Positions 5,340-30,702 of a stretch of 64,000 bases of DNA are shown in pieces (the first letter of the stretch is position 1; each line of letters starts with the position of its first letter). Position numbers and translations under genes: made by a program. The notes under the pieces are model-generated. The model worked only from the letters and a program-made list of their open reading frames with translations. It was not told the origin of the DNA and did not search any database. The stretch covers positions 992,001 through 1,056,000 of the forward strand of contig CAWEJX010000020.1 of NCBI GenBank assembly GCA_963809485.1. Direction: 5' to 3'. The stretch comes from an uncultured Acidobacteriota bacterium. Its GTDB lineage: Bacteria; Acidobacteriota; UBA6911.

Positions 5340-5576
5340 TTATTAGTTATTAGCTATAGGCTAATAGGGATTAGGGATTAGGTAGAATTGGGTAATGCGG
5401 CGATGGGGCGCAAGAAAACAGCGCAACAAAATGGCCGGGATTGGGAGCAGGTATAGAAGAAGCCGAAGGGCGACGCTTCCGGTCTTTGGATGGGATTGAC
5501 AAAATCCCCGATCAGCAAAAATGCCAGGGATTCAAATCACGGATCTGCTGAAACAAAGGCATTTGGGAGAGATTGA

Positions 5577-6617
5577 ATGAAAAGGAAGAGGGGCTTAACC
5601 GCGACCATCGGCTTTGCAGTGCTCGGAGTGTTCCTGATCGCCTTCGTACACGATGATACCAAAGCCATGGATCCGGTTCCCATACGGCTGGGCACTTTGG
5701 CGCCCACCGGCAGTTCATTCCATACGGCCCTCATCGAAATGGGTCAGAAATGGCGCAACGCAAGCGGCGGCGCCGTTAAATTAACCATATATCCGGATGG
5801 AACGCAGGGCGGCGAGGCCGATATGGTGCGCATGATGCGCGCCGGCATCCTGACCGCGGGCCTGTTCACGGTCGTCGGCCTTAGCGAAATCGACTCATCC
5901 GTCGGATGCCTGTCCTTTCTTCCCCTGACATTCCGTTCCTGGGAGGAATATGACTACGTTCGGGAGAAGATGGCCCCGAAGCTCGAAAGGCTGCTTCTGG
6001 AGAAAGGCTTCGTCGTCCTTTTCTGGGGTGACGCCGGATGGGTGCGGTTTTTCTCCAAAACGCCGGCCATACGCCCAGACGACTTCAAGCAGCTGAAGAT
6101 TTTCACCTGGGCGGGAGATGCCTATCAGGTGGACCTTATGAAAGCATTGGGCTATCACCCGGTGCCTCTGGAAACAGCCAATATTCTGCCGGGACTGCGA
6201 ACGAACCTGATCAACGCTATTCCGCTTCCGCCAAGCCAGGCTCTGCTGGGCCAGTGCTACACGGCAGCGCCCAACATGCTGGCGCTGAAATGGACTGTTC
6301 TCTCGGGCGGAGCCATAATCCGTAAGGAAACCTGGGACAAAATCCCTGCCGATGTACAGAAACAGTTGCGCGAAGCAGCCGCCATGGCAGGCAGTAGAAT
6401 CCGCGCCAGCGATCGGAAAGAAGACGATGAATCCATAGCCGCCATGCAGAAAAAGGGATTGGCCGTGCATCCGGTTACGCCCCAGGTCGAGGAGGAATGG
6501 CGGAAATTGACCGGGATCATCTACCCCCAGCTGCGCGGGAAAAAGGTGCCGGCGGATATCTTCGATGAAGTGCAGCGCCTGGTTTCCGAGTACCGGGCAA
6601 AAGGAACAGGTAAATGA
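5577..6617 (+). CDS. dctP: TRAP substrate-binding protein DctP (TatP-type)
   Basis: IRLGTLAP.GS, LTIYPDGTQGGEADMV and GWVRFFSK.P motifs. Confidence 0.9.
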   Translation: MKRKRGLTATIGFAVLGVFLIAFVHDDTKAMDPVPIRLGTLAPTGSSFHTALIEMGQKWRNASGGAVKLTIYPDGTQGGEADMVRMMRAGILTAGLFTVVGLSEIDSSVGCLSFLPLTFRSWEEYDYVREKMAPKLERLLLEKGFVVLFWGDAGWVRFFSKTPAIRPDDFKQLKIFTWAGDAYQVDLMKALGYHPVPLETANILPGLRTNLINAIPLPPSQALLGQCYTAAPNMLALKWTVLSGGAIIRKETWDKIPADVQKQLREAAAMAGSRIRASDRKEDDESIAAMQKKGLAVHPVTPQVEEEWRKLTGIIYPQLRGKKVPADIFDEVQRLVSEYRAKGTGK

Positions 6618-8473
6618 GCGTTGGAACGGTGGAAGTTGCGGGCGCTTCCGATCTGGACAGGTGGATTCGGCCATTCCGGGGAGGCGGCGCTCGAAATCTG
6701 GAAAACCTCCTGATGACGTTTTGCCTGGCCGCGATGGTCCTGCTGCCCCTGGCCGATATCGCCCTGCGCTCCAGCACAATTGTCCTGTCCGGTTCGAGCG
6801 CTATCCAGTGCCATTTGACGCTGTTTGTCTGCATGATCGGGGGCGCCCTCGCCGCGCGCGAGGCGCGGCATCTTTCGCTTTCAACGGTAACGGTTTTTCT
6901 GAAGGGTCGCGCCAAAGATTATGCGCGCCTTTTCAGCGGAGCTTTTGCAGCCGCAACGACTTTTTTCCTTTTTATCGCCAGTCTCCGCTTTGTGCTCCAG
7001 CAGCGTGAGGCAGGCAACATCCTGGTTTACGGAATTCCAATTTGGGTAGCGCAGACCATTCTCCCGTTGGGATTCGCCGTCATAACGGTACGCCTCCTGA
7101 AGCACGCCGCCGACAGTTGGGCCGGACGGGGCGTCGCAACACTCATCGCCTGTGCGCTGACGGCAACGATAGCCTATCTGCCGGCGGATCCATCCCGGTG
7201 GGTCCTCCCTACCCTGCTGATACTTCTGGTTGCGACCATTCTCGGCGCTCCCATTTTCGTAACGCTCGGGGGCGCCGCGCTCATACTTCTCTGGGGCGAT
7301 GCCGTCCCCATCGAAATGATGCCCATCCGGCATTACCAGCAGGTCACCAATGCATCGCTGCCGGCGATTCCGATGTTTACGCTGGCCGGCTACCTGCTGG
7401 CGGAAGGCGGCGCCGCCAGAAGGCTGATTCGGGTTTTTCAAGCCCTGGTGGGTCATATCCGGGGCGGTCCGGCCATCGCGGCAGTCCTTGCCTGCGCCTT
7501 TTTCACCAGTTTCACCGGCGCATCCGGAATTACTATCCTTGCCCTGGGCGCCCTCCTTATGCCGGTTCTGCTGTCGGCGCGCTACGCCGAAAGAGATGCT
7601 CTAGGCCTGCTGACGGGTTCGGGATCCATTGGGCTTCTCTTCCCGCCCTGTCTGCCCGTAATTCTCTACGCGATCATCGCCAACACTGATATCAACCAGA
7701 TGTTCCTGGGCGGCATCTTCCCCGGAATCCTCATGGTCGTGGCCGCATGTATCTGGGGGGTCTCCAGGAGTCCCAAAATCATCGCATCCGAGGGCAAAGG
7801 ATTCCAATGGGCCGAAGCCCGAAGCGCTTTATGGGATGCAAAATGGGAACTCCTGCTGCCGGTTGTCGCCTGCGCAGCTCTTTTCAGCGGTTATGCGACT
7901 GCCGTGGAGGCTTCCGCCATCACGGCCCTCTATGCCTTTGTCGCAGAATGCCTGGTTTACAGGGATCTGAAAATTACCCGCGATCTCCCCCGCGTGATAG
8001 CGGAATGCGGTCTGCTGGTGGGCGCCATCCTGCTGATCCTGGGTGTTGCGCTGGGCTTCACAGGGTACCTTGTCCAGGCTCAGGTCCCCGAACAGCTGAT
8101 TGCCTGGGTTCAGAATACCGTGCATTCGCCCCTGCTCTTCCTGCTTGCCCTCAACTGCTTTTTGCTCATCGTCGGCTGCCTGATGGATATTTTTTCCGCA
8201 ATTATTGTCGTGGTGCCGCTACTGAAGCCGCTGGGGGCGGCGTTCGGGATCGACCCGGTCCACCTTGGAATCATTTTCCTGGCCAACCTGGAGTTGGGCT
8301 ATCTGACCCCGCCCGTCGGATTGAATCTGTTCCTGTCATCTTATCGCTTCAACAAGCCGATGCCCCAGGTATGGAACTCGATCATTCCGATCCTTCTCGT
8401 GCTGCTGTGCGGCGTCCTGCTGATCACATACGTGCCTGCGCTGTCGACGATTCTGCCGCAGCACTTCAGGTGA
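6614..8473 (+). CDS. Fused TRAP permease DctQM
   Basis: N-terminal small-subunit motif (REARHLSL); C-terminal DctM motifs AIPMFTLAG, FTGASG, GIDPVHLGIIFLANLELGYLTPPVG. Confidence 0.92.
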   Translation: MSVGTVEVAGASDLDRWIRPFRGGGARNLENLLMTFCLAAMVLLPLADIALRSSTIVLSGSSAIQCHLTLFVCMIGGALAAREARHLSLSTVTVFLKGRAKDYARLFSGAFAAATTFFLFIASLRFVLQQREAGNILVYGIPIWVAQTILPLGFAVITVRLLKHAADSWAGRGVATLIACALTATIAYLPADPSRWVLPTLLILLVATILGAPIFVTLGGAALILLWGDAVPIEMMPIRHYQQVTNASLPAIPMFTLAGYLLAEGGAARRLIRVFQALVGHIRGGPAIAAVLACAFFTSFTGASGITILALGALLMPVLLSARYAERDALGLLTGSGSIGLLFPPCLPVILYAIIANTDINQMFLGGIFPGILMVVAACIWGVSRSPKIIASEGKGFQWAEARSALWDAKWELLLPVVACAALFSGYATAVEASAITALYAFVAECLVYRDLKITRDLPRVIAECGLLVGAILLILGVALGFTGYLVQAQVPEQLIAWVQNTVHSPLLFLLALNCFLLIVGCLMDIFSAIIVVVPLLKPLGAAFGIDPVHLGIIFLANLELGYLTPPVGLNLFLSSYRFNKPMPQVWNSIIPILLVLLCGVLLITYVPALSTILPQHFR

Positions 8474-8551
8474 TCCTGTAAGGACGGTTCTCAGGAACCG
8501 TCCCCGGACCGCGGCGATAGAGTGCCGCATTTGCAGAGAAAGGAATTGTTC

Positions 8552-10045
8552 ATGAACGTCGCTGATTTGTTTGCGAACGCTGCAGTCTGTTATCCGGGAA
8601 AAAATGCGCTGATCTTCGGAGACCGGGCCTATACCTATAACGAGATGAACCGGATCATTGCAGGGGTGGCAGCTTATTTGAAGACACTGGGCATCGTCCG
8701 AGGGGACCGCATCTCGCTTTACATGCTGAACCGGCCCGAATGGATCATGGCTTACTATGGCGCGGCCAGAATCGGCGCAATAACCGTTTGCGTGCCGGGA
8801 GCATACAAGACGGATGAAGTCAAAAATGTGGTGAATGACTCGAAATCCTCAATCCTGATAACCTCCGAATCCCATCAGTCGCTGCTCCCTGCACCTGAGG
8901 CGATACCCGGAATAAGGGAAGTCATTGTGGTCGAGCGGGACGAGGTTCTGCAATCCATCCTGAAGGGAGAAAACGCAAACTTCTGCGACACGGACACCGA
9001 TATCACCGGCGACGATGCCTGCGCGATACTGTACACGGGGGGAACGACAGGCACGCCCAAGGGCGCCATGCTGACGCACCGGAACCTTATCTACAGCGCA
9101 CAAAATGTCATTTATCACGAACGGATGGTTCCCGAAGACATAGGATCATGCTTCCTTCCTCTCAACCATGTCTTCGCCCAATGCCATATTATGCATACGG
9201 TCTTTTGCGCCTGCGCCACACTGGTGCTTTTCCCCGGCTTCGATATGGACAGGGTAACCGCAGCCGTTACGGAACATAACGTGACCCGTTTCTACGCCGT
9301 TCCCACCGTCTTCATCCGCTATCTGAACAATCCGGAAACAAGGAAACAGCTGAAAAGCGTCCGTTACGTATTTTCGGGAGGAACCAGCATGCCCGCCGAA
9401 ATAGTACGGCAATGGGAGGACGCTTACGGCACCCGCATTCACGAAGCCTACGGGATGACGGAGGCCGCTTCCCTGGTGACTTTTAATCACATCTTCCGGC
9501 ACAAGATCGGGTCCATCGGAATGCCCGGAGGCATCATCGAGGTAAAGGTTGTGGATGAAAACGACAGGGAAGTCAGGCAGGGGCAGCAGGGCGAAATTAT
9601 TATACGGGGCCCCAATATCATGAAGGGCTATTTCCAGCAGCCCGAGGAGACGGCCATGTCCCTCCGCAACGGATGGTTTCACTCCGGGGACGTGGGCGTC
9701 TTCGACGAAGAGGGGTATCTTTTTATTGTGGACCGCATCAAGGACATCATCATTACCGGCGGCGAGAATGTCTATCCCAAGGAAGTCGAGGACACGCTCC
9801 ATCAGCACAGGGCCGTCAACGAATGCGGGGTTGTGGGTTTGCCCGATCGTGAATATGGAGAAGCCGTTACCGCTTTCGTGACATTGAAACCGGGCATCTC
9901 CGCGGATGAACGCACTCTCATTGCATTCTGCAAGGAAAAGATGGCCGGCTACAAAGTACCCAAGAAAATCCGCTTTGTTGCCGACCTGCCGAAAACGCCG
10001 CAGGGCAAAATTCTCCGCCGGGAATTGCGGAAAGTTACGAACTGA
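8552..10045 (+). CDS. Long-chain fatty-acid--CoA ligase family (AMP-binding)
   Basis: YTGGTTGTPKG, YGMTE, GWFHSGD, DRIKDIIITGGEN and PKTPQGK motifs. Confidence 0.93.
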   Translation: MNVADLFANAAVCYPGKNALIFGDRAYTYNEMNRIIAGVAAYLKTLGIVRGDRISLYMLNRPEWIMAYYGAARIGAITVCVPGAYKTDEVKNVVNDSKSSILITSESHQSLLPAPEAIPGIREVIVVERDEVLQSILKGENANFCDTDTDITGDDACAILYTGGTTGTPKGAMLTHRNLIYSAQNVIYHERMVPEDIGSCFLPLNHVFAQCHIMHTVFCACATLVLFPGFDMDRVTAAVTEHNVTRFYAVPTVFIRYLNNPETRKQLKSVRYVFSGGTSMPAEIVRQWEDAYGTRIHEAYGMTEAASLVTFNHIFRHKIGSIGMPGGIIEVKVVDENDREVRQGQQGEIIIRGPNIMKGYFQQPEETAMSLRNGWFHSGDVGVFDEEGYLFIVDRIKDIIITGGENVYPKEVEDTLHQHRAVNECGVVGLPDREYGEAVTAFVTLKPGISADERTLIAFCKEKMAGYKVPKKIRFVADLPKTPQGKILRRELRKVTN

Positions 10046-22168: not shown

Positions 22169-22244
<76 letters not shown>

Positions 22245-23281
22245 TGAAAACAAAAGACTTACGGTTTTTCACTTCTCTCCTTTTTCTCCCAAAACAGCCC
22301 GTAGGGTGAAAAAACTCAGCCGTGCCGTAAATGCCTGCAAATAGAACCGCTTGCCGAGCAAGCCAGTTGCGTCCACTACGAGGCTTGACAGGCAGTCGGT
22401 GTTGCCGGATGCTGCAGATTCTCACTGCAATTCCGGAGGAGAATGTGAAGGTACTATTGCACCCCTGGCAGTTATTGCTTTTGGTTCTCGCTGGCTGGGT
22501 CAATCGTCGGCGGCAGGATGTGATCGAATACCTTCTGGTTGAAAATCGTGTGTTGCGGCAGAAACTGGGGAAAAGACGAATCCTGCTGAATGAAGAACAG
22601 CGGCGCCGCCTTGCCGTCAAAGGCAAGATCCTCGGTCGGAAGATGATCGAGCAGGTCGCTGGGATTGTAACTCCGGAAGCGATTCTTCGCTGGCATCGTG
22701 AGTTGGTCGCACGACATTGGGATACCAGCAAGCGACGACAGAGGGCCGGACGGCCGGCGATTCCTCAGGAAACCGTGGATCTCATTCTGAAATTGGCAAA
22801 GGAAAATCCTCGCTGGGGCTACAAGCGCATCCAGGGCGCAGTCGCGAATCTCGGAAGCGTGATTTCGGATACGGCAGTTGCAAACATTCTGAGGGCCCCA
22901 TGCGATAGACCCGGCCCCGGATCGAAAGAGACAGGGCAGCTGGAAGGAATTCCTCAACACACACTGGGATATGCTTGCCTCGGTTGATTTCACAGCGATC
23001 GGGATTTGGACGAAGAAGGGATTGGTTACATACTATCTGCTGTTCTTCATGGAGATTGCAACCCGACGGATTCATTTTGCTGGTCTCACCACCAATCCAG
23101 ATGAAGCCTGGCTGCTTCAGGTTGCCAGGAATGTGACTGACGCCGATGACGGATTCCTTCGTGGCAATCGATACTTGCTGATGGACCGAGACACGAAATT
23201 CTCGGAAGCGTTCCGGGGCACGTTTGAGGATGTCGGAGTGAAGCCGCTCCGCCTGCCGGCACGATCCCCGAATTTGAGTGC

Positions 23282-25363
23282 TTATGCTTCATACTGCACC
23301 TCATGCGTAATTTGGGTCGCTCTTTCTGCCTTTGATCGATAGCATCCCGGTTTTCTCTTGTGCTTAAGCGGCCTATTGTTTCCAGGACGTTCGATGAGAT
23401 AAGAATGGTCATTGTACCAGTGGGCGTGTAGATAACCTCCACGTTTCCACTTCTTGACCGTTCCGGGATTGATATCGAGTCTGGCTGCTGTCTCATTAAC
23501 TGTCATCATCCCAAGATCGCGGAGTCGTTGATATCGTGTTTTCATTGCATACTCGCGGCAAAGACGGTAGACCATTGCGTGATTAATGGACTTTCCCTCG
23601 CCTGAGCGATATCCGCGTTCGGTGAGAATCACGGAAATCTCCGAGTCCGTATGGTTGTCGAGCAGCCGGTCGATCTCGGCGAGCACTTCAGGACTGGTCT
23701 GCCGGATCTTCCATGCCGGAGGCGGAAGAGGCAGTGTCAGTATCCTGGTGGCTCCCCCTCGGAAGCGGACACTGGCGCTGATTTCTTTGTTCCTAATAAG
23801 AGTCACATCTTCGATCAAGAGCCGCAACATTCGCTTTCGATCGCGGTCCTCTGTCCGCTGATCTTGCCAGAGTTTGGGAAAATCACTTGCAAGAGTAAGA
23901 ACCTGCGTGCTTGTCTTTTCATCAAGGAGCTTCCGATCCCTTTCGCATTCCCGCTGATACTCTTGCTGTCGCTCATCGAGCACTCGGAGTTTCTCGTTCC
24001 ACTCAGCCTCAAGTGAGGCAGCTACAAGCCGGTTCTCTGGATCTACACGGAGAAAACGCCGCCGGGCAAGATCCGCCTCATACTGAGCTCGCTCGACGTG
24101 TTTTTTTCGCAGTGCGTCTGCTTCACTCAGACGTGTCTGCAATTCCTGCTGCACTGCCAGCGTCACTTCTAGAGCCATGGGACTCACAGCCTCAACCAGA
24201 AGAGCTCCTACAGCCTCGTCGATATTCGCTCCCGGGATATGCTGGCAAATCCTCTCTCCGCGTTCTATCCCTTCGCGCTGGCACACATAGTCAGGCTGAA
24301 GTCCTTGTCTCCTACCATGATAACGAACCGTCATACGCCGGCCGCATACTCCACAGATCACCAACCCCTGTAACAAAGCAGGACCTTCTCTTGGCGGGCT
24401 CTTGCGGCGGTCGGTGCCGTGGGCCGCCGAGTTTTCGGTCAGGCATTTCTGGTTCTGTTCGAATTCGTCCCAAGAAATGTAGCCCGGATGCGCATTGGGA
24501 ATAAACGCAATCCATTCCTCCCGCGGTAATTTCCTACTGCTAACATTAGAGCCATACTTGCGCTGTCGAGTACGCCCAAAGAAAAATGCTCCCGCAAAGC
24601 GTGGATTGTGCAGCAGCCATAAGGCGCGATGGAGTAAAAGGGGGCCCCACGCCAAGTCTCCCTTCTGATGATTATCGGCTCGTCGTGGAAAGAGCAGGCC
24701 CTTGTTTCGAAACGCTTTCACTGTTGCTGTTGCAGACCCCGTACGACGAAAAGTCCGGAAGAACATGCGGATGCTCTCCTGAACCTGCCGGTCGGGATCA
24801 ATCACGACTTTGCCTGTTGCATCGTAGATGAAACCAATGGGAAGTGGGCACTCTAGTTCACCTCGCCGTGCCTTATTCACGATACCGCCCAAAAGCCGAG
24901 CCCGAAGCATGTGCAGTTCGGCTTCACTCATCGTACCTTTGAGACCGAGCAGCAGGCGGTCATTAAAGTGCGCCGGATCGTAAATACCATCCTCGTCCAG
25001 TATGAGTGTATCGCTCAGTGCACACATTTCGAGCAGCCGATGCCAGTCGGCCGAATTTCGTGCAAGGCGAGAAACCTCTAAACCCATCACCAAGCCTGCA
25101 TGCCCTAACCCAACTTCGGTCACCAATTTTTGGAAACCCTCGCGGTCTGCAGCGGCTGCGCCTGATTGGCCCAGATCCGTATCCAGCACAATGATACGCT
25201 CCTGGGGCCATCCCAACGCAACTGCGCGCTGCTTCAAGGCATACTGGCGTTTTGTACTTTCAGTATTTTCCAAAACCTGTCGGAGCGTCGATTGCCGTAT
25301 GTACAAATAGGCATTCCGTTGAACGTGGATCGGCCGGATCTTCTGATTCCCCTCACTCGCCAT
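23282..25363 (-). CDS. Large serine recombinase (resolvase + recombinase + Zn ribbon)
   Basis: AYLYIRQS (catalytic Ser), SRLARN, LLQGLVICGVCGRRM; ends HEVQYEA with its stop abutting the att core. Confidence 0.95.
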   Translation of the reverse strand: MASEGNQKIRPIHVQRNAYLYIRQSTLRQVLENTESTKRQYALKQRAVALGWPQERIIVLDTDLGQSGAAAADREGFQKLVTEVGLGHAGLVMGLEVSRLARNSADWHRLLEMCALSDTLILDEDGIYDPAHFNDRLLLGLKGTMSEAELHMLRARLLGGIVNKARRGELECPLPIGFIYDATGKVVIDPDRQVQESIRMFFRTFRRTGSATATVKAFRNKGLLFPRRADNHQKGDLAWGPLLLHRALWLLHNPRFAGAFFFGRTRQRKYGSNVSSRKLPREEWIAFIPNAHPGYISWDEFEQNQKCLTENSAAHGTDRRKSPPREGPALLQGLVICGVCGRRMTVRYHGRRQGLQPDYVCQREGIERGERICQHIPGANIDEAVGALLVEAVSPMALEVTLAVQQELQTRLSEADALRKKHVERAQYEADLARRRFLRVDPENRLVAASLEAEWNEKLRVLDERQQEYQRECERDRKLLDEKTSTQVLTLASDFPKLWQDQRTEDRDRKRMLRLLIEDVTLIRNKEISASVRFRGGATRILTLPLPPPAWKIRQTSPEVLAEIDRLLDNHTDSEISVILTERGYRSGEGKSINHAMVYRLCREYAMKTRYQRLRDLGMMTVNETAARLDINPGTVKKWKRGGYLHAHWYNDHSYLIERPGNNRPLKHKRKPGCYRSKAERATQITHEVQYEA

Positions 25364-25670
25364 AGCTCACCTCTGTGGATGCCGCATGGAAAACCATACT
25401 CGACAGTACCATTACGATGTCGCCCTGTAATCCCGCAGGAAGGAAGTCGTCAGCCATTTTGCTGTCGGCGCCTTCAGGGACAACCGGGCTCGCATAGGTC
25501 CACCACGCATCGATCCATGCCGCCAATCCTTGATACTTCAAGACGGCAAGTCCAAGTTCTCCTTGAGTGCAAGAACTTTGATCGATTGCCTGTTTGCGCA
25601 GTTTTTCGTATGCCGTTTTGATCCGCATCAGTGCATCAGGTCCCTGATCAACTTGCCTTCTGGCTTTCAT
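25353..25670 (-). CDS. Small hypothetical protein of the recombinase element
   Basis: Overlaps both neighbours; YEKLR...GLAVL..QGLAAWI. Confidence 0.7.
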   Translation of the reverse strand: MKARRQVDQGPDALMRIKTAYEKLRKQAIDQSSCTQGELGLAVLKYQGLAAWIDAWWTYASPVVPEGADSKMADDFLPAGLQGDIVMVLSSMVFHAASTEVSYGE

Positions 25671-26137
25671 AGCTGTTTTTTTTCCCGCCGGCGCAGGGCG
25701 CGCTCAACGGTGCGACGGTGAACTTTAATGCCAAAGCGCTCGGTGACCAGGGAAATCAACTCCGAAACAGTTGGTGATTGGCTTGCAGCCCGGGCCGCCT
25801 CAATGTAATCGACGACTTCTTCGCTAAGCTTATGACCACTTCGGGGACCCCGTTTTTTGGGGATGAGCCCGGGAAGGCCATCTTGCCGCAGGATTGACTG
25901 AGCTTGGTAAAATGCTGGCCGTGAGAGGCCGAAGGCGGCAGCAGCGGCAGTCACCGACTTCCCCTCGGCTTCGACCCGCCGCAGCATCTCGTACTTGACC
26001 TGAACTACGTCACGTGCATTGAAGAATTCGCTTTCGAGGAAGAGTGAATCGGTTACCCGTTCAGGATGAGGATTCAGGGTTCCTTGCTGTTTCAGTGCTT
26101 TTATCTTTGGGTCGGCTGTGCGCAATTGTTTTTTCAT
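25667..26137 (-). CDS. HTH domain protein of the recombinase element
   Basis: FFNARDVVQVKYEMLRRV, FGLSRPAFYQ and HRRTVERAL motifs. Confidence 0.82.
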   Translation of the reverse strand: MKKQLRTADPKIKALKQQGTLNPHPERVTDSLFLESEFFNARDVVQVKYEMLRRVEAEGKSVTAAAAAFGLSRPAFYQAQSILRQDGLPGLIPKKRGPRSGHKLSEEVVDYIEAARAASQSPTVSELISLVTERFGIKVHRRTVERALRRREKKQL

Positions 26138-26285
26138 TGTAATAATATATACGCCTTATTCCTCTCCGCATGTCAAGGATAATCGTGTTGACATCAACCG
26201 TACGCTAGCCGTTATCAAGCATATCATGCGCATACCATCAATAATGTTTGCAGATGCGCACAACGGATATGCGGCGATATTACTC

Positions 26286-26639
26286 TTACACATGCGGCGT
26301 CTTTTCCTTTACAGATGTTGCGCGGACTCTTTTCTTGGGCATTTTGCTTTTACAGAACGTCACCAGCTCTGCGAGCTGAATGAGATCTTCCGTGCGGAAG
26401 CAGGCCCTGCCCGCTGCAATGGCTACGAACGGATCCGGCGCTGCCGCATCGGTCCATGCAGTTGGTATCGCTATAAGGCAATTCTCTTCGTTGTAGAAGT
26501 ACACTCTGGACTCACCCCAGGCTGGCCTACAAGCAACCAGCTCGAACCGGCGGTTATGAAGAGGATGGAAGGGATGCGTTACTGTGAAAAATCGTTGCGG
26601 TTCTGTCGAATACTTCGCAGTTGATGGCTTTTTCCAGTG
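26286..26639 (-). CDS. DUF5372 (Y4bD/Y4pK-like) protein lacking its own full-length start in the integrated state
   Basis: Frame is open up to the att core: ..FTVTHPFHPL..RFELV..WGESRVYFY..IPTAWTD. Confidence 0.75.
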   Translation of the reverse strand, partial: HWKKPSTAKYSTEPQRFFTVTHPFHPLHNRRFELVACRPAWGESRVYFYNEENCLIAIPTAWTDAAAPDPFVAIAAGRACFRTEDLIQLAELVTFCKSKMPKKRVRATSVKEKTPHV

Positions 26640-27164
26640 CGCACATTGAGCGGTTCATGCGAAGCCTGAAGGAGGAGTGCCTGGAGCGCATGATCTTCTT
26701 CGGAGAGAAATCGCTCCATGCCGCCACAGTAAGCTATGTGGATCATTTTCTTACGGAGCGCAACCATCAGGGGGTGGGCAACCGGCTGCTGATTCCTGGG
26801 AGGGAAGTCGGCGAGAGGGCCGGTGAGGTCGTGTGCCGGCAACGGCTCGGTGGACTGCTGCGTTACTATTTCCGCGAAGCTGCATGACCTCGGTCGATTC
26901 ATCACGGAAGCCGTTCGGGAGCAGCCTGATCGTGTGCACAGCCGTCCGTGCATGGCCGAGGAACCAAATGGTTAATCCGGTCCTTTTCCTCCCCAGTATC
27001 CAGAATTCGTCCGTCAGTCTATTGAGATCGGCCGGACATGTTCCGCCACTATCTACCCTTCCTGACTATGTCGAGTAGCACCTACTGCAATCGATCTCAA
27101 CCCGAAGATTCCAAGTCATGGCACCACTGCGGTGAGCGTGTTACTCGACATAGTCTTTTCGATC

Positions 27165-27554: not shown

Positions 27555-28793
27555 ATGAACCAACTGTTGGAAGACCTCAGAATATCTGCCCGGGTAGAGG
27601 AAGGCCCCCTCGGACCGTATATCGGCTCCTATGCTGCACAGCTGCTTTCGGAGGGGTATGCAAGACACTCAAGCTGCGTGAAGATCCGGCTCGTTGGTGC
27701 GTTTAGCCGATGGCTGAGTCGCAAGCACATAGCTGCCAATAAGCTGGTAGATCAGCACCCAGTCGATTTTTTACGCTATCGCAATCGATGCGGCCATCGC
27801 CTTGGTCTAGGTGATCCAGCGACCATAATGCGCGTGTTGAAGTTGCTTCGCGAGCAAGACGTGATCGTGCAGGGACCGGCCCAGGCGCCAACAACGCCGA
27901 GCGAGCGTCTGGTGGAAGAGTACGATATTTATTTGCAGAGGGAGCGAGTGCTCTCTCTGGCAACACGGATCAATTATCGGCCCTTTATTCAGAAGTTTCT
28001 GACCGTTCGGTTTGGGAAAGGTCCGGCCAAACTCTCTCGCCTGCGTACCACAGACATCATTGGATTTGTACGGTGTCATGCCCGACAAATACACAGCAAA
28101 CGCGTTCAGCTGATGACCACCGCGCTTCGCTCTTTCCTGCGATTTGCCCGTTATCGTGGCGACATCACCCTTGATCTGGCCGCCTGTGTCCCCGCAGTGG
28201 CGAGTTGGTCCTTATCCACGCTACCGCGAGCTCTTCCCCCGGCACATGTAAAGCTGGTTTTGGAACACTGCAACAGACAAACAGCCGTAGGCCGCCGCGA
28301 CTACGCAATCCTGTTGTTACTCGCCCGCCTTGGCCTGCGAAGCGGAGAAGTTGCCGGTCTCGGTTTGGAGGACATTGATTGGAAGAACGGGTTATTCTCG
28401 GTTGTGGGCAAAGGGGGCTCCTCGTCTCCGTTACCTCTTCCTGCAGATGTAGGCAACGCAATCGCTGCCTACCTGAAGGACGGCCGGCCGCGACTATCCG
28501 GCAACCGGCGAGTATTTCTCCGGGCCAGAGCACCGATGGTCGGGTTCACGAGTATGGCGGTGCGCGATGTCGTCAAACGCGCTCTTGCCCGAGCCGGAAT
28601 TGATTCACCGCGAAAAGGTGCGCACCAGTTTCGTCACGCGCTGGCTACAGGCATGCTGAACCGAGGAGCCTCTTTGAGCGAGATCGGAGAACTCCTGCGG
28701 CACCAAAACCCGGATACAACCAGAATCTATGCGAAAGTCGATCTGGCTTCGCTGCGTACTGTAGCAATGCCATGGCCAGGAGGTGGGCGATGA
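27555..28793 (+). CDS. Inner RitA tyrosine recombinase
   Basis: RLGLRSGEV, HQFRH and LRHQNPDTTRIY motifs. Confidence 0.92.
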   Translation: MNQLLEDLRISARVEEGPLGPYIGSYAAQLLSEGYARHSSCVKIRLVGAFSRWLSRKHIAANKLVDQHPVDFLRYRNRCGHRLGLGDPATIMRVLKLLREQDVIVQGPAQAPTTPSERLVEEYDIYLQRERVLSLATRINYRPFIQKFLTVRFGKGPAKLSRLRTTDIIGFVRCHARQIHSKRVQLMTTALRSFLRFARYRGDITLDLAACVPAVASWSLSTLPRALPPAHVKLVLEHCNRQTAVGRRDYAILLLLARLGLRSGEVAGLGLEDIDWKNGLFSVVGKGGSSSPLPLPADVGNAIAAYLKDGRPRLSGNRRVFLRARAPMVGFTSMAVRDVVKRALARAGIDSPRKGAHQFRHALATGMLNRGASLSEIGELLRHQNPDTTRIYAKVDLASLRTVAMPWPGGGR

Positions 28794-29710
28794 ACAGCCT
28801 CCGCAAAGCGGTCAAGGACTACATTGAGATGCGCCGCGCCTTAGGATACAAGATGAGGAAGGCGAGAGTTCTATTGCCGCAGTTTATCAACTTCTTGCAC
28901 CAGCAAGGTTCATCGGTTATCACGATCCCGCTGGCCCTTCAATGGGCACAAAGCAACAGAGGGGTGCAACCTACCGAGTGGGCCCAGCGATTGACCACCG
29001 TCCGTTGTTTTGCTCGTCACTGGAGTGCCACCGACCCTCGAACTCAAATTCCGCCATGGGGCTTACTGCCGCATCGCCCCAAGCGAGCACGACCGTACTT
29101 GTATAGCGACGAAGAAGTTCAGCAACTCCTGCAATCCGCACGTCGGTTAGGTGGTTTGCGCGGTCTGACCTACTACTGTTTGTTCGGATTGTTATGCGTC
29201 GCTGGCCTGAGAATCAGCGAGGCGTTGAACCTGCGATCGGTGGATGTCGATTTGGTAACCGGCGTTCTGACCGTCCGTGGAGCGAAGTTCGGCAAGTCCC
29301 GATTGGTGCCGATTCATGCCACGACACAAAAGGTTCTCTCTGAGTACGTGAAGTATCGTGACCGTACTTTTGCTCGAGAACTCTCCTTTTTCTTTGTCTC
29401 TAAACGTGGCAATCGCCTTGATGGAGGCGAAGTACGGCGTACCTTTTACGCCCTGTCACGCGAAATCGGGCTGCGTGGCCCGACCGCCAGTCACGGACCA
29501 CGCTTGCACGACTTCCGTCATCGACTGGCTGTCCGAACCCTGGTGCAGTGGTACCGCTGGGGACAAGATGTCGAGCGACGCCTACCCGTATTGTCGACTT
29601 ACCTCGGTCATGTTCACGTCAGCGATACGTACTGGTATCTCACCGCTTGCCCCGAACTAATGGGAATGGCGGTGAAGCGCCTGGAAAAGCACTGGGAGGG
29701 GCAATCATGA
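28790..29710 (+). CDS. Inner RitB tyrosine recombinase
   Basis: GLRISEA, KFGKSRLVP, HDFRH and LGHVHVSDTYWY motifs. Confidence 0.92.
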   Translation: MNSLRKAVKDYIEMRRALGYKMRKARVLLPQFINFLHQQGSSVITIPLALQWAQSNRGVQPTEWAQRLTTVRCFARHWSATDPRTQIPPWGLLPHRPKRARPYLYSDEEVQQLLQSARRLGGLRGLTYYCLFGLLCVAGLRISEALNLRSVDVDLVTGVLTVRGAKFGKSRLVPIHATTQKVLSEYVKYRDRTFARELSFFFVSKRGNRLDGGEVRRTFYALSREIGLRGPTASHGPRLHDFRHRLAVRTLVQWYRWGQDVERRLPVLSTYLGHVHVSDTYWYLTACPELMGMAVKRLEKHWEGQS

Positions 29711-30702
29711 AGACCGCCACCTTCTCTGCATTGCTGGAAAGCTTTTTCAGTGAGCGCCTGATCCGTCAGCGCCAGGTGAGCCCTCATACCATCAGTTCCT
29801 ATCGCGATACATTCCGGCTGCTTCTTCAGTTCGCGCAGCGGAGTCTGCACAAGCCGCCATCCCGTTTCGCACTTGAGGACATCGATGCCCCAATGGTTAG
29901 CGCGTTCCTCAATGACATGGAGAACAGTCGCAAGATCACTGCGCGCAGTCGAAATCTTCGTTTGACCGCTATTCGCTCTTTCTTTAACTATACGGCCTAC
30001 GAGGAACCTGCTCACGCACAGCAGATCCAGCGTATCCTGGCAATTCCCGGCAAGAGATACTCCCGAACTTTGGTTCAGTTTCTGAACCGGCCCGAGATTG
30101 ACGCGCTCCTGGCGGCCCCAGATCAACGAACCTGGCTCGGTCGTCGCGATCACGCACTACTGCTTGTGGCGGTTCAGACCGGGTTGCGCTTGTCCGAGCT
30201 GACAGGACTGCAAACTCAAGACGTGCATTTGGCAACAGGAGCCCACGTTCGCTGTTCGGGCAAAGGCCGAAAAGAGCGCTGCACTCCGTTGACCAAGCAC
30301 ACAGTAGCAGCCTTGAAAGCTTGGTTATATGAATCGGCCAAAGGTGCTGCCGAGTGGCTGTTTCCCAGTGCACGCGGCGGTCGGCTGAGTGCCGACGCCG
30401 TGCAGGATTTGTTGGCAAAACACGTGGCAGTCGCGGCCCGGGACTGTCCCTCATTGCGGAAAAAGCGGGTGACCCCGCATGTGCTTAGACACGCCGCCGC
30501 AATGGAATTGCTTCAGTCTGGTGTGGATCGTTCAGTCATTGCCCTCTGGCTGGGACATGAATCTATCGAAACCACCCAAATTTATATAAACGCAGATCTG
30601 GCTCTCAAGGAAAAGGCCCTGGCTAAGACGACGCCTGCCAGCAGTAATCAACGACGTTTTCGGGCCAAAGACTCATTGCTGGAATTTCTCAAAGCCTTGT
30701 GA
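29707..30702 (+). CDS. Inner RitC tyrosine recombinase
   Basis: TGLRLSEL, GKGRKER, PHVLRH and LGHESIETTQIY motifs. Confidence 0.92.
   Translation: MKTATFSALLESFFSERLIRQRQVSPHTISSYRDTFRLLLQFAQRSLHKPPSRFALEDIDAPMVSAFLNDMENSRKITARSRNLRLTAIRSFFNYTAYEEPAHAQQIQRILAIPGKRYSRTLVQFLNRPEIDALLAAPDQRTWLGRRDHALLLVAVQTGLRLSELTGLQTQDVHLATGAHVRCSGKGRKERCTPLTKHTVAALKAWLYESAKGAAEWLFPSARGGRLSADAVQDLLAKHVAVAARDCPSLRKKRVTPHVLRHAAAMELLQSGVDRSVIALWLGHESIETTQIYINADLALKEKALAKTTPASSNQRRFRAKDSLLEFLKAL

Follow-up and report, generated by a model that had tools for sequence, protein, structure and literature searches.

The stretch of DNA analysed here (the window) comprises 64,000 nucleotides from an uncultured Acidobacteriota bacterium of the lineage UBA6911 (GenBank assembly GCA_963809485.1, contig CAWEJX010000020.1, positions 992,001 to 1,056,000 of the forward strand), and all positions given below are those of the window. 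It contains a mobile element of 3359 bp that encodes a large serine recombinase (LSR) and occupies 23282-26640 on the minus strand (or, equivalently, 23277-26635, as a 5-bp core is shared by both ends). When integrated, this element splits one of its own genes, that for a DUF5372 protein, so that the start codon lies at one end of the element and the body of the gene at the other. The same split is found in relatives. We consider it likely that the element is a compact, transposon-like unit that has its attachment site (attP) within the 5' end of its DUF5372 gene, and that the protein assembled in the excised circle would bind the LSR and act as a sensor of the element's state.

Boundaries of the element

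Contigs that join 23276 directly to 26636 were found in two of four Logan runs (X1 and X3, from two different studies). Exactly 3359 bp are missing from them, and 5 letters can be assigned to either side; in run X2 the integrated right junction is present. The empty-site contigs fix the ends of the element independently of any argument from reading frames, and they bear out the ends that had been proposed in an earlier model-generated note made without database searches (the sequence-only reading). The sequence AGTGC (plus strand) stands at both ends, at 23277-23281 beside the recombinase gene (attR in the orientation of the element) and at 26636-26640 beside DUF5372 (attL), the latter placed by the empty-site contigs. 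The position of the former, 14 nt past the ATG described below, matches that of the TT core of relatives, and the crossover dinucleotide in the window is probably CT on the minus strand (23278-23277). An identical core at both ends and a precise empty site, as expected of an LSR mobile element, are accompanied by a recombinase gene of the corresponding type (23282-25363, minus strand), in which PF00239, PF07508 and PF13408 (Resolvase, Recombinase and Zn_ribbon_recom) are found in one open reading frame (ORF) of 693 aa, together with a C-terminal HTH_17.

The element lies in an insertion sequence, and the reading frame of the rve transposase runs unbroken across the insertion site. A second copy, likewise within a copy of the same insertion sequence, is located on contig C7 of the same genome and differs from the first at 2 positions; the insertion sequence is occupied in both cases, and no empty one was found in this genome. 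The outer parts of the two insertion sequences differ at about 31 positions, and the same two copies are identical for 380 bp (22897-23276) and 218 bp (26641-26858) flanking the element, a pattern more in keeping with gene conversion or joint movement than with two separate insertion events.

The DUF5372 gene is split between the two ends

The body of the gene (26289-26636, minus strand) comprises 116 codons from a TGG and is followed by a stop codon at 26288-26286. Its frame matches Pfam DUF5372 (PF17342, gathering score cut-off 25 bits) with 90.8 bits (E 5.7e-26) over profile positions 1-74 of 78; the match covers residues 25-98 of the stop-to-stop frame and begins at the Val that precedes a THPFHP motif (26579-26562). 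In the integrated state, the frame is open from 26654, and a TGA in the flanking DNA (26657-26655, minus strand) closes it upstream. From this TGA to the T of THPFHP (26579) the frame is devoid of ATG, GTG and TTG as well as of CTG, ATT, ATC and ATA. The sole internal start is a GTG opening an ORF of 72 aa (26504-26286), which lacks THPFHP and about one third of the domain. As the body is startless when integrated, no full-length protein with the domain is expected from this form.

A suitable start is present at the opposite end. The LSR ORF terminates with GAG GTG CAG TAT GAA GCA TAA (stop at 23284-23282) and here contains a Shine-Dalgarno (SD)-like GAGGTG (23297-23302, minus strand), 4 nt upstream of an ATG at 23290-23292 (minus strand). 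This ATG is located 8 nt before the LSR stop codon and 14 nt from the crossover core. When the two ends were joined in silico at the core, 5 + 116 codons came together in frame as an ORF of 121 codons with the core at codons 5/6, which places attP within the element's own coding sequence. It is DUF5372 that is split and not the recombinase, whose ORF ends at 23282, inside the element. The in-frame join to a 121-aa protein that the sequence-only reading had described was thus reproduced, and what it had stated about the GAGGTG, the ATG, the cores, the TGA and the internal GTG ORF holds throughout. From this arrangement we infer that the protein is translated only from the joined form.

The split layout is conserved among relatives

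A single in-frame join could arise by chance, with odds put at roughly 1 in 3 in the sequence-only reading; the layout recurs, however, in all 75 distinct relatives for which both ends were located. Among 401 genomes of the phylum that were sampled, 16 have a match to PF17342, 14 of them above the cut-off, and one genome (G279) alone has 11 matches. Eight copies in G279 are identical over approximately 3349 bp at different sites, and the shared sequence ends sharply, with TT on both sides. A second G279 family (3 copies) and a family in genome G353 (2 copies) show the same layout. Comparison of multiple copies in these two genomes sets the ends without any assumption about motifs. In both G279 families, the G353 family and the window, the in-silico circle joins the start at the recombinase end in frame with DUF5372. 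This start is ATG in the G279 families and the window and GTG in G353; counted from it, exactly 24 codons precede the T of THPFHP, with the crossover dinucleotide at codons 5/6.

The survey was extended to species-representative genomes and metagenomes, which contain at least 520 and at least 498 relatives, respectively, and 80 loci were kept from each. At least seven phyla are represented: Acidobacteriota, Chloroflexota, Gemmatimonadota, Planctomycetota, Actinomycetota, Pseudomonadota and Myxococcota. Ends were located with a 9-base motif derived from the window, which was searched with up to 2 mismatches near the LSR C-terminus while the start triplet was ignored; equal dinucleotides were also required at both predicted cores. 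Of 166 loci examined, 94 had the LSR C-terminal region, and both ends were found in 83, giving 75 distinct junctions. At the start position, 59 of these have ATG, 12 GTG, one TTG and three another triplet. In two of these three (L127 and L096), the codon that follows in frame is TTG. L085, the third, is a spurious match of the finder; its true end, as given by comparison with L086, shows CTG followed by an in-frame ATG. Stops in frame 0 of the circle are absent (0/75), compared with 64/75 and 60/75 in the other two frames. The core dinucleotide is TT in 69 cases, AA in 4, CT in one (the window) and CG in one (the spurious L085). An SD-like word is present at -14 to -4 in 71 of 74 distinct junctions located with an earlier finder that had the ATG as part of its motif. 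Four right ends proposed by an earlier finder (L064, L148, L201 and L208), with 4 mismatches to the motif and an unequal geometry, were judged false. In L199, whose core is AA, the ends also join in frame. A search of viral contigs gave 150 pattern matches, none of which is a relative.

Internal starts in the DUF5372 frame are scattered among the 75 relatives, and none is conserved. The commonest is a GTG for the Val before THPFHP, which is found in only 20/75 and was ruled out as the real start on this ground; in the window this codon is GTA. Two patterns that the sequence-only reading had named as contrary to its proposal, random frames at the circle junctions of homologues and homologues with a DUF5372 start of their own, were therefore not what we found: frame 0 is free of stops in every case with ATG, GTG or TTG at a fixed position in 72/75, and the commonest candidate for an own start is the GTG just mentioned.

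Ten distant members were also inspected. Nine of them are startless (G230, G250, G205, G106, G144, G332, G258, G290 and an element on contig C8 of the window's own genome), and the tenth has an internal TGA. An in-frame join is also obtained for G332 and G290, whose cores are TT and AA. The frame on C8 (595978-596127, L059), the third DUF5372-like frame of this genome, scores 23.7 bits, which is below the cut-off, and is directly followed by an LSR fragment (residues 8-302).

Of all cases examined, the most distant is L052, in which DUF5372 is a contiguous gene, 190 bp past that of the LSR, and has an ATG of its own. The word GGTGCA.TATG precedes this ATG, which again stands 24 codons before THP; judged from its sequence, L052 is an example of the form of the unsplit gene. 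The order at positions 5483-9760 of this locus is LSR, contiguous DUF5372, an HTH_17-like protein and a tyrosine integrase, and L052 may represent an unsplit or a free configuration inside a larger element. On plasmid pNGR234a (L221, 4540-4803), the RefSeq table starts the DUF5372 coding sequence at an ATA. There, the element ends join in frame from a GTG, and the LSR is spread over three frames. Automatic annotation evidently has difficulty in assigning a start to members of this family.

The start codon and the attP inverted repeat

Since the joined start lies within attP, we asked which of its features belong to the attachment site. The arms of the inferred attP (P, 23282-23306; P', 26611-26635; both minus strand) form an inverted repeat, with TGCAGT (23298-23293) and ACTGCA equidistant from the core and GC-rich bases beside the core. 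The P' arm carries TCAACTGC at 26624-26617 and doubles as codons of a W..PST(A/T) leader; the conservation of this leader and of the fixed distances is explained by the inverted repeat. The ATG, in contrast, lies in the asymmetric spacer, and GAGG lies beyond the inverted repeat, on one side only.

These observations bear on the idea that the in-frame ATG is a by-product of attP geometry and that DUF5372 is translated in the integrated state from a near-cognate codon, the Val GTG or a start in the flank. It is true that TGCAGT and the spacing belong to the inverted repeat around the core, that a GTG occurs at the Val codon in 20/75, that a start happens to lie in frame in the flank at about 17 of 80 genome loci and that RefSeq assigns an ATA start in pNGR234a. 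However, the ATG and GAGG fall outside the symmetrical part, start codons occupy the position in 72/75, and stops avoid frame 0 but not the other two. Besides, there is no conserved internal start, the window itself has GTA at the Val codon, and L052 has the same word at a contiguous start. We regard this explanation as improbable.

The sequence-only reading had explained the HEVQYEA tail of the LSR as a dual-coding sequence. This part of it needs correction. The LSR stop overlaps the motif in one frame in the window and many relatives (..EVQYEA) and in another frame, with ATGA, in some relatives (..GAV tails); in L067/68 and L139 it lies 20-27 nt upstream of the motif, and in the second G279 family there is no LSR stop before the core. 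As the DNA motif persists wherever the LSR stop falls, LSR coding is not its explanation, and dual coding with the LSR tail was ruled out as the main constraint. In the second G279 family (L044-L046), the recombinase ORF without a stop before the core has a C-terminus that differs between integrated copies and circle. This is similar to the integration-dependent C-terminus of the Mx8 recombinase IntP.

Predicted fold and contact with the recombinase

An AlphaFold model of DUF5372 based on 86 sequences (pLDDT 86.8) predicts an SH3-like barrel of five strands with two helices after it, and is of low confidence over the first 10 residues. A Foldseek search against the PDB returned no match at E 0.001 or better (best 0.018, SH3/KOW-like barrels), and the best hit of a sequence search of the PDB for a homologue had E 0.8, so that no solved homologue was found. 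The residues THP.HP and W-T are invariant in the domain across phyla.

Co-folding of DUF5372 with the LSR gave a score of 0.73, compared with 0.00 for the best of three controls. Contacts agreed to at least 69% between runs, with partner pLDDT of at least 67. Among the cases used to calibrate the tool, 58 of 80 solved complexes but also 2 of 110 mismatched pairs attained this mark, a rough guide here as our own alignments were used. The predicted interface on the LSR comprises residues 336-341 (zinc ribbon), 392-411 and 484-516 (the two coiled-coil feet) and 521-539; on the side of DUF5372 it is formed by THPFHP and the helices.

Could the startless frames simply be decaying remnants of a non-functional gene? 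Many copies indeed lie in degenerate elements with truncated or interrupted LSR genes. Yet the domain with its invariant residues is conserved across phyla, the frame is open in all 75 complete elements, and both the DUF5372 model and its predicted interface with the co-conserved LSR are confident, which makes decay a very unlikely explanation.

Recombination directionality factors (RDFs) bind DBD2 of the LSR near the coiled-coil junction, according to the part of PMC12286644 that deals with them. The predicted contact of DUF5372, at the junction of zinc ribbon and coiled coil, coincides with this known RDF site and supports a directionality-type partner. Among the roles suggested in the sequence-only reading (directionality, targeting or copy control), directionality thus gains support from the modelled contact. 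What was not found is availability in the integrated state, as would be needed of an RDF: there is no start in the window and no conserved one in the 75 relatives.

Target sites are transposase genes

The insertion sequence interrupted in the window is about 1.39 kb long (22300-27048 minus the insert), with its transposase gene on the plus strand. The 5' part (22300-23276) encodes HTH_32 and rve domains and ends with ..PNLSA; the 3' part (26641-27048) continues with HIERFMRSLKEE.. and contains rve_3. The ORF adjoining the right end was tested at 10 loci: in 8 it has an rve domain ending exactly at the junction (profile positions 101-102 of 102), in one DDE_Tnp_IS66 and in one an HTH only. In-silico empty sites read ..PYD/NA.ES.., ..PQT/KGKVER.., ..PFD/NNQAER.. 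and similar, with the slash at the junction. According to these readings, insertion occurs antisense, 4 codons before the catalytic Glu of DDE transposase genes, and the TT core corresponds to the AA of an Asn or Lys codon in the target. As insertion falls within the transposase gene, the insertion sequence is inactivated at each event. Judged by the flanks of L061-L220 and of the window, the family looks like a parasite of parasites. We found no paper on serine recombinases that target transposase genes, the search having covered main texts.

A proposed circle-made state sensor

We propose that the split serves to report the topological state of the element. In the integrated form, the ribosome-binding site and the first five codons would remain at the recombinase end, 3.3 kb away from the other 116, startless codons. 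Excision would join the cores; the SD and ATG, both in the terminal part of the LSR gene, would thereby come into frame with the body, and the circle would have the gene order HTH, small ORF, LSR, DUF5372. The 121-aa protein would be made only from the circle (or from a tandem copy), and its translation would probably be coupled to the end of the LSR gene overlapped by its start. It would then bind the LSR at the junction of zinc ribbon and coiled coil, sense the topological state and set the direction of recombination.

With regard to this direction, the reading we prefer is that DUF5372 would bias the LSR towards integration, or block re-excision, while the element is free. We favour such a role because a classical RDF cannot be absent before excision and would block integration of the circle. 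A possible route would be competition with an excision factor encoded wholly inside the element, for which a 105-aa ORF is a candidate. In its fullest form, the proposal would be that of a widespread family of 3.3-kb LSR elements that parasitises insertion sequences of the IS3, IS21, IS481 and IS66 types by homing to the codons before the catalytic Glu of their DDE transposases, and that has a new kind of directionality control: an anti-RDF, or integration-licensing factor, would be assembled in the circle and would switch the LSR from the excision to the integration mode. In this version, which we put forward tentatively, either topological state would express exactly those factors that are needed to leave it.

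If DUF5372 were instead a canonical RDF, it would stimulate attL x attR and inhibit attP x attB recombination, with the split layout accepted as described. Made in the circle, it would commit the element to the excised state, prevent immediate re-insertion at the vacated site and trigger excision of sister copies in trans. The predicted contact lies exactly at the DBD2/coiled-coil junction where known RDFs bind, as described in the relevant part of PMC12286644. The presence of many copies per genome (11 matches in G279) would allow action in trans, and in L052 the gene follows the LSR gene like an ordinary accessory gene. On the other hand, a protein that is absent before excision is unable to start it, and an RDF co-translated with the LSR would block integration of the circle, which would be fatal for a 3.4-kb element without recognised genes for replication or transfer. 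We consider this a serious rival, if a rather doubtful one.

Several points weigh against the proposal of a circle-made sensor. Contigs of the four Logan runs contain only the integrated and empty forms and no circle junctions; all of the 72 assessable metagenome loci have target-like left flanks and no circular junction, and none of the left flanks inspected at genome loci has a P arm. The attP palindrome explains part of the conservation (TGCAGT, the fixed distances and the W..PST leader), and the constancy of the frame could be inherited attP geometry, that is, of a recombinase-binding palindrome, rather than the result of selection on coding. The elements are related by descent, so the survey counts are not independent; moreover, the motif of the end finder was derived from the window, and the start triplet, omitted from the main finder, was included in earlier ones. 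No right end was found in 11 of the 94 loci, owing to contig ends (L101, L106, L147, L208), truncated or degenerate copies (L091, L072), interrupted LSR genes or variant motifs. Three of these loci (L098, L047 and L135), and L157 as well, are in frame when read by eye, and in a separate tally of loci with at least 3700 nt downstream the misses mostly had truncated, interrupted or absent LSR genes. Due to chance starts in the flank, expression might leak at some sites. A scan of 23100-26800 for sigma-70-like promoters, the only type covered, gave 0 sites. Finally, the direction of the effect is a guess, and a canonical RDF made only after excision would be paradoxical.

Relation to known systems

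That integration can split a functional unit at attP is an established idea. In the archaeal tyrosine integrases of the SSV1 type ('suicidal' integrases), attP lies inside the coding gene, which is split upon integration and whole when the element is free; the passages on these systems in PMC8371274 state them to be exclusive to archaea. The DUF5372 elements resemble them in that a gene of their own is split at attP and whole only in the free form. In SSV1-type systems, however, the recombinase is cut in the middle of its gene, whereas here a bacterial LSR element has an accessory gene cut after codon 5 and an intact recombinase. The final codons of the LSR gene cross the core in some relatives only.

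Expression that depends on a junction is also known from promoters formed at the junctions of insertion sequence circles. Junction-dependent promoters of circular intermediates are described for TnpX of Tn4451/Tn4453, Pcir of ICEclc and P3'end of ICEKp1 in the corresponding part of PMC13023037. As in these cases, circularisation sets an expression signal beside a gene at the other end, so that expression would report the excised state. There, transcription of the recombinase is concerned; here, a start codon and ribosome-binding site are parted from an ORF, and the gene is not a recombinase.

In mycobacteriophage BPs and its relatives, immunity depends on integration and attP lies within a regulatory gene, as set out in the pertinent section of PMC4557955. 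Integrated and free forms encode different products, as would be the case here. In BPs, in contrast, the 3' end of the repressor is swapped, both forms are translated and the integrase is a tyrosine recombinase. In the sib retroregulation of phage lambda, a recombination gene is under the control of a cis element beyond attP only as long as the ends are joined; sib is an RNA-processing site on the int mRNA, unlike the split ORF described here.

The RDFs of LSRs, such as phiC31 gp3, Bxb1 gp47 and SPbeta SprB, are small accessory proteins located at the DBD2/coiled-coil junction, as far as they are treated in that part of PMC12286644. DUF5372 is likewise a small accessory protein predicted to bind DBD2 at the coiled-coil junction, but has no relation to known LSR RDFs in sequence or fold and, not being present before excision, would be no classical trigger. 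The multi-targeting LSRs of Durrant et al. 2022 are transposon-like, use many attB sites, have a conserved TT core and commonly contain DUF4368, according to the passages on them in PMC10083194. Our elements share the transposon-like character and the TT core with them; DUF4368, however, is absent from the Pfam matches of the window's LSR (E up to 0.01). Transposase-gene targets or a split accessory gene are not mentioned for these LSRs in the same passages of PMC10083194.

What is new is that, in bacterial LSR elements, an accessory protein predicted to bind the LSR has its translation start parted from the body of its gene, and that transposase genes are targeted. No paper naming DUF5372 was found in a literature search of main texts. 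The arrangement would be a hard-wired translational sensor of the topological state of a mobile element, while the known junction-dependent systems control transcription of the recombinase and the known genes split at attP are the archaeal integrase itself or the tail of a phage repressor. It gives the uncharacterised Pfam family DUF5372 a testable role and offers a candidate LSR partner protein that would be useful for integrase-based genome engineering and recombinase logic. It also reveals elements that inactivate transposase genes at the catalytic motif. Copies on plasmids of cultured Sinorhizobium, Paraburkholderia, Burkholderia and Streptomyces make experiments feasible.

Other genes of the element and its surroundings

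Two further genes lie between DUF5372 and the LSR gene. The first (25667-26137, minus strand) encodes a protein of 156 aa with matches to HTH_28, HTH_23 and HTH_32, which is similar to the N-terminal part of IS481/IS630 transposases that binds DNA (E 3.7e-12 and 2.2e-11; the matches fall far short of the full-length cut-offs). It is found at the same place in 66 of 66 complete relatives, and is the same kind of protein as the targets of the element. The second, the 105-aa ORF (25353-25670, minus strand), overlaps the HTH stop and the LSR start and has no family match; it is detectable in 34 of the 66, and an Atlas search gave scores of at most 0.81. NCBIfam and PHROGs gave no match for either the DUF5372 protein or the 105-aa ORF, and no replication or transfer genes were recognised in the element by Pfam, NCBIfam or PHROGs. 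A terminator scan of the element gave nothing informative.

The insertion sequence that carries the element is directly preceded by a tRNA-Thr (CGT) gene at 22169-22244 (plus strand). On its other side it is adjoined by a tyrosine recombinase trio, three consecutive genes of the Phage_integrase family (412, 312 and 384 aa; 27555-30702, plus strand). At L085/L086, the LSR gene is broken by a similar trio with 82-bp inverted repeats at its flanks. As a whole, the window from the tRNA-Thr gene to about 30700 is dense in genes of mobile elements.

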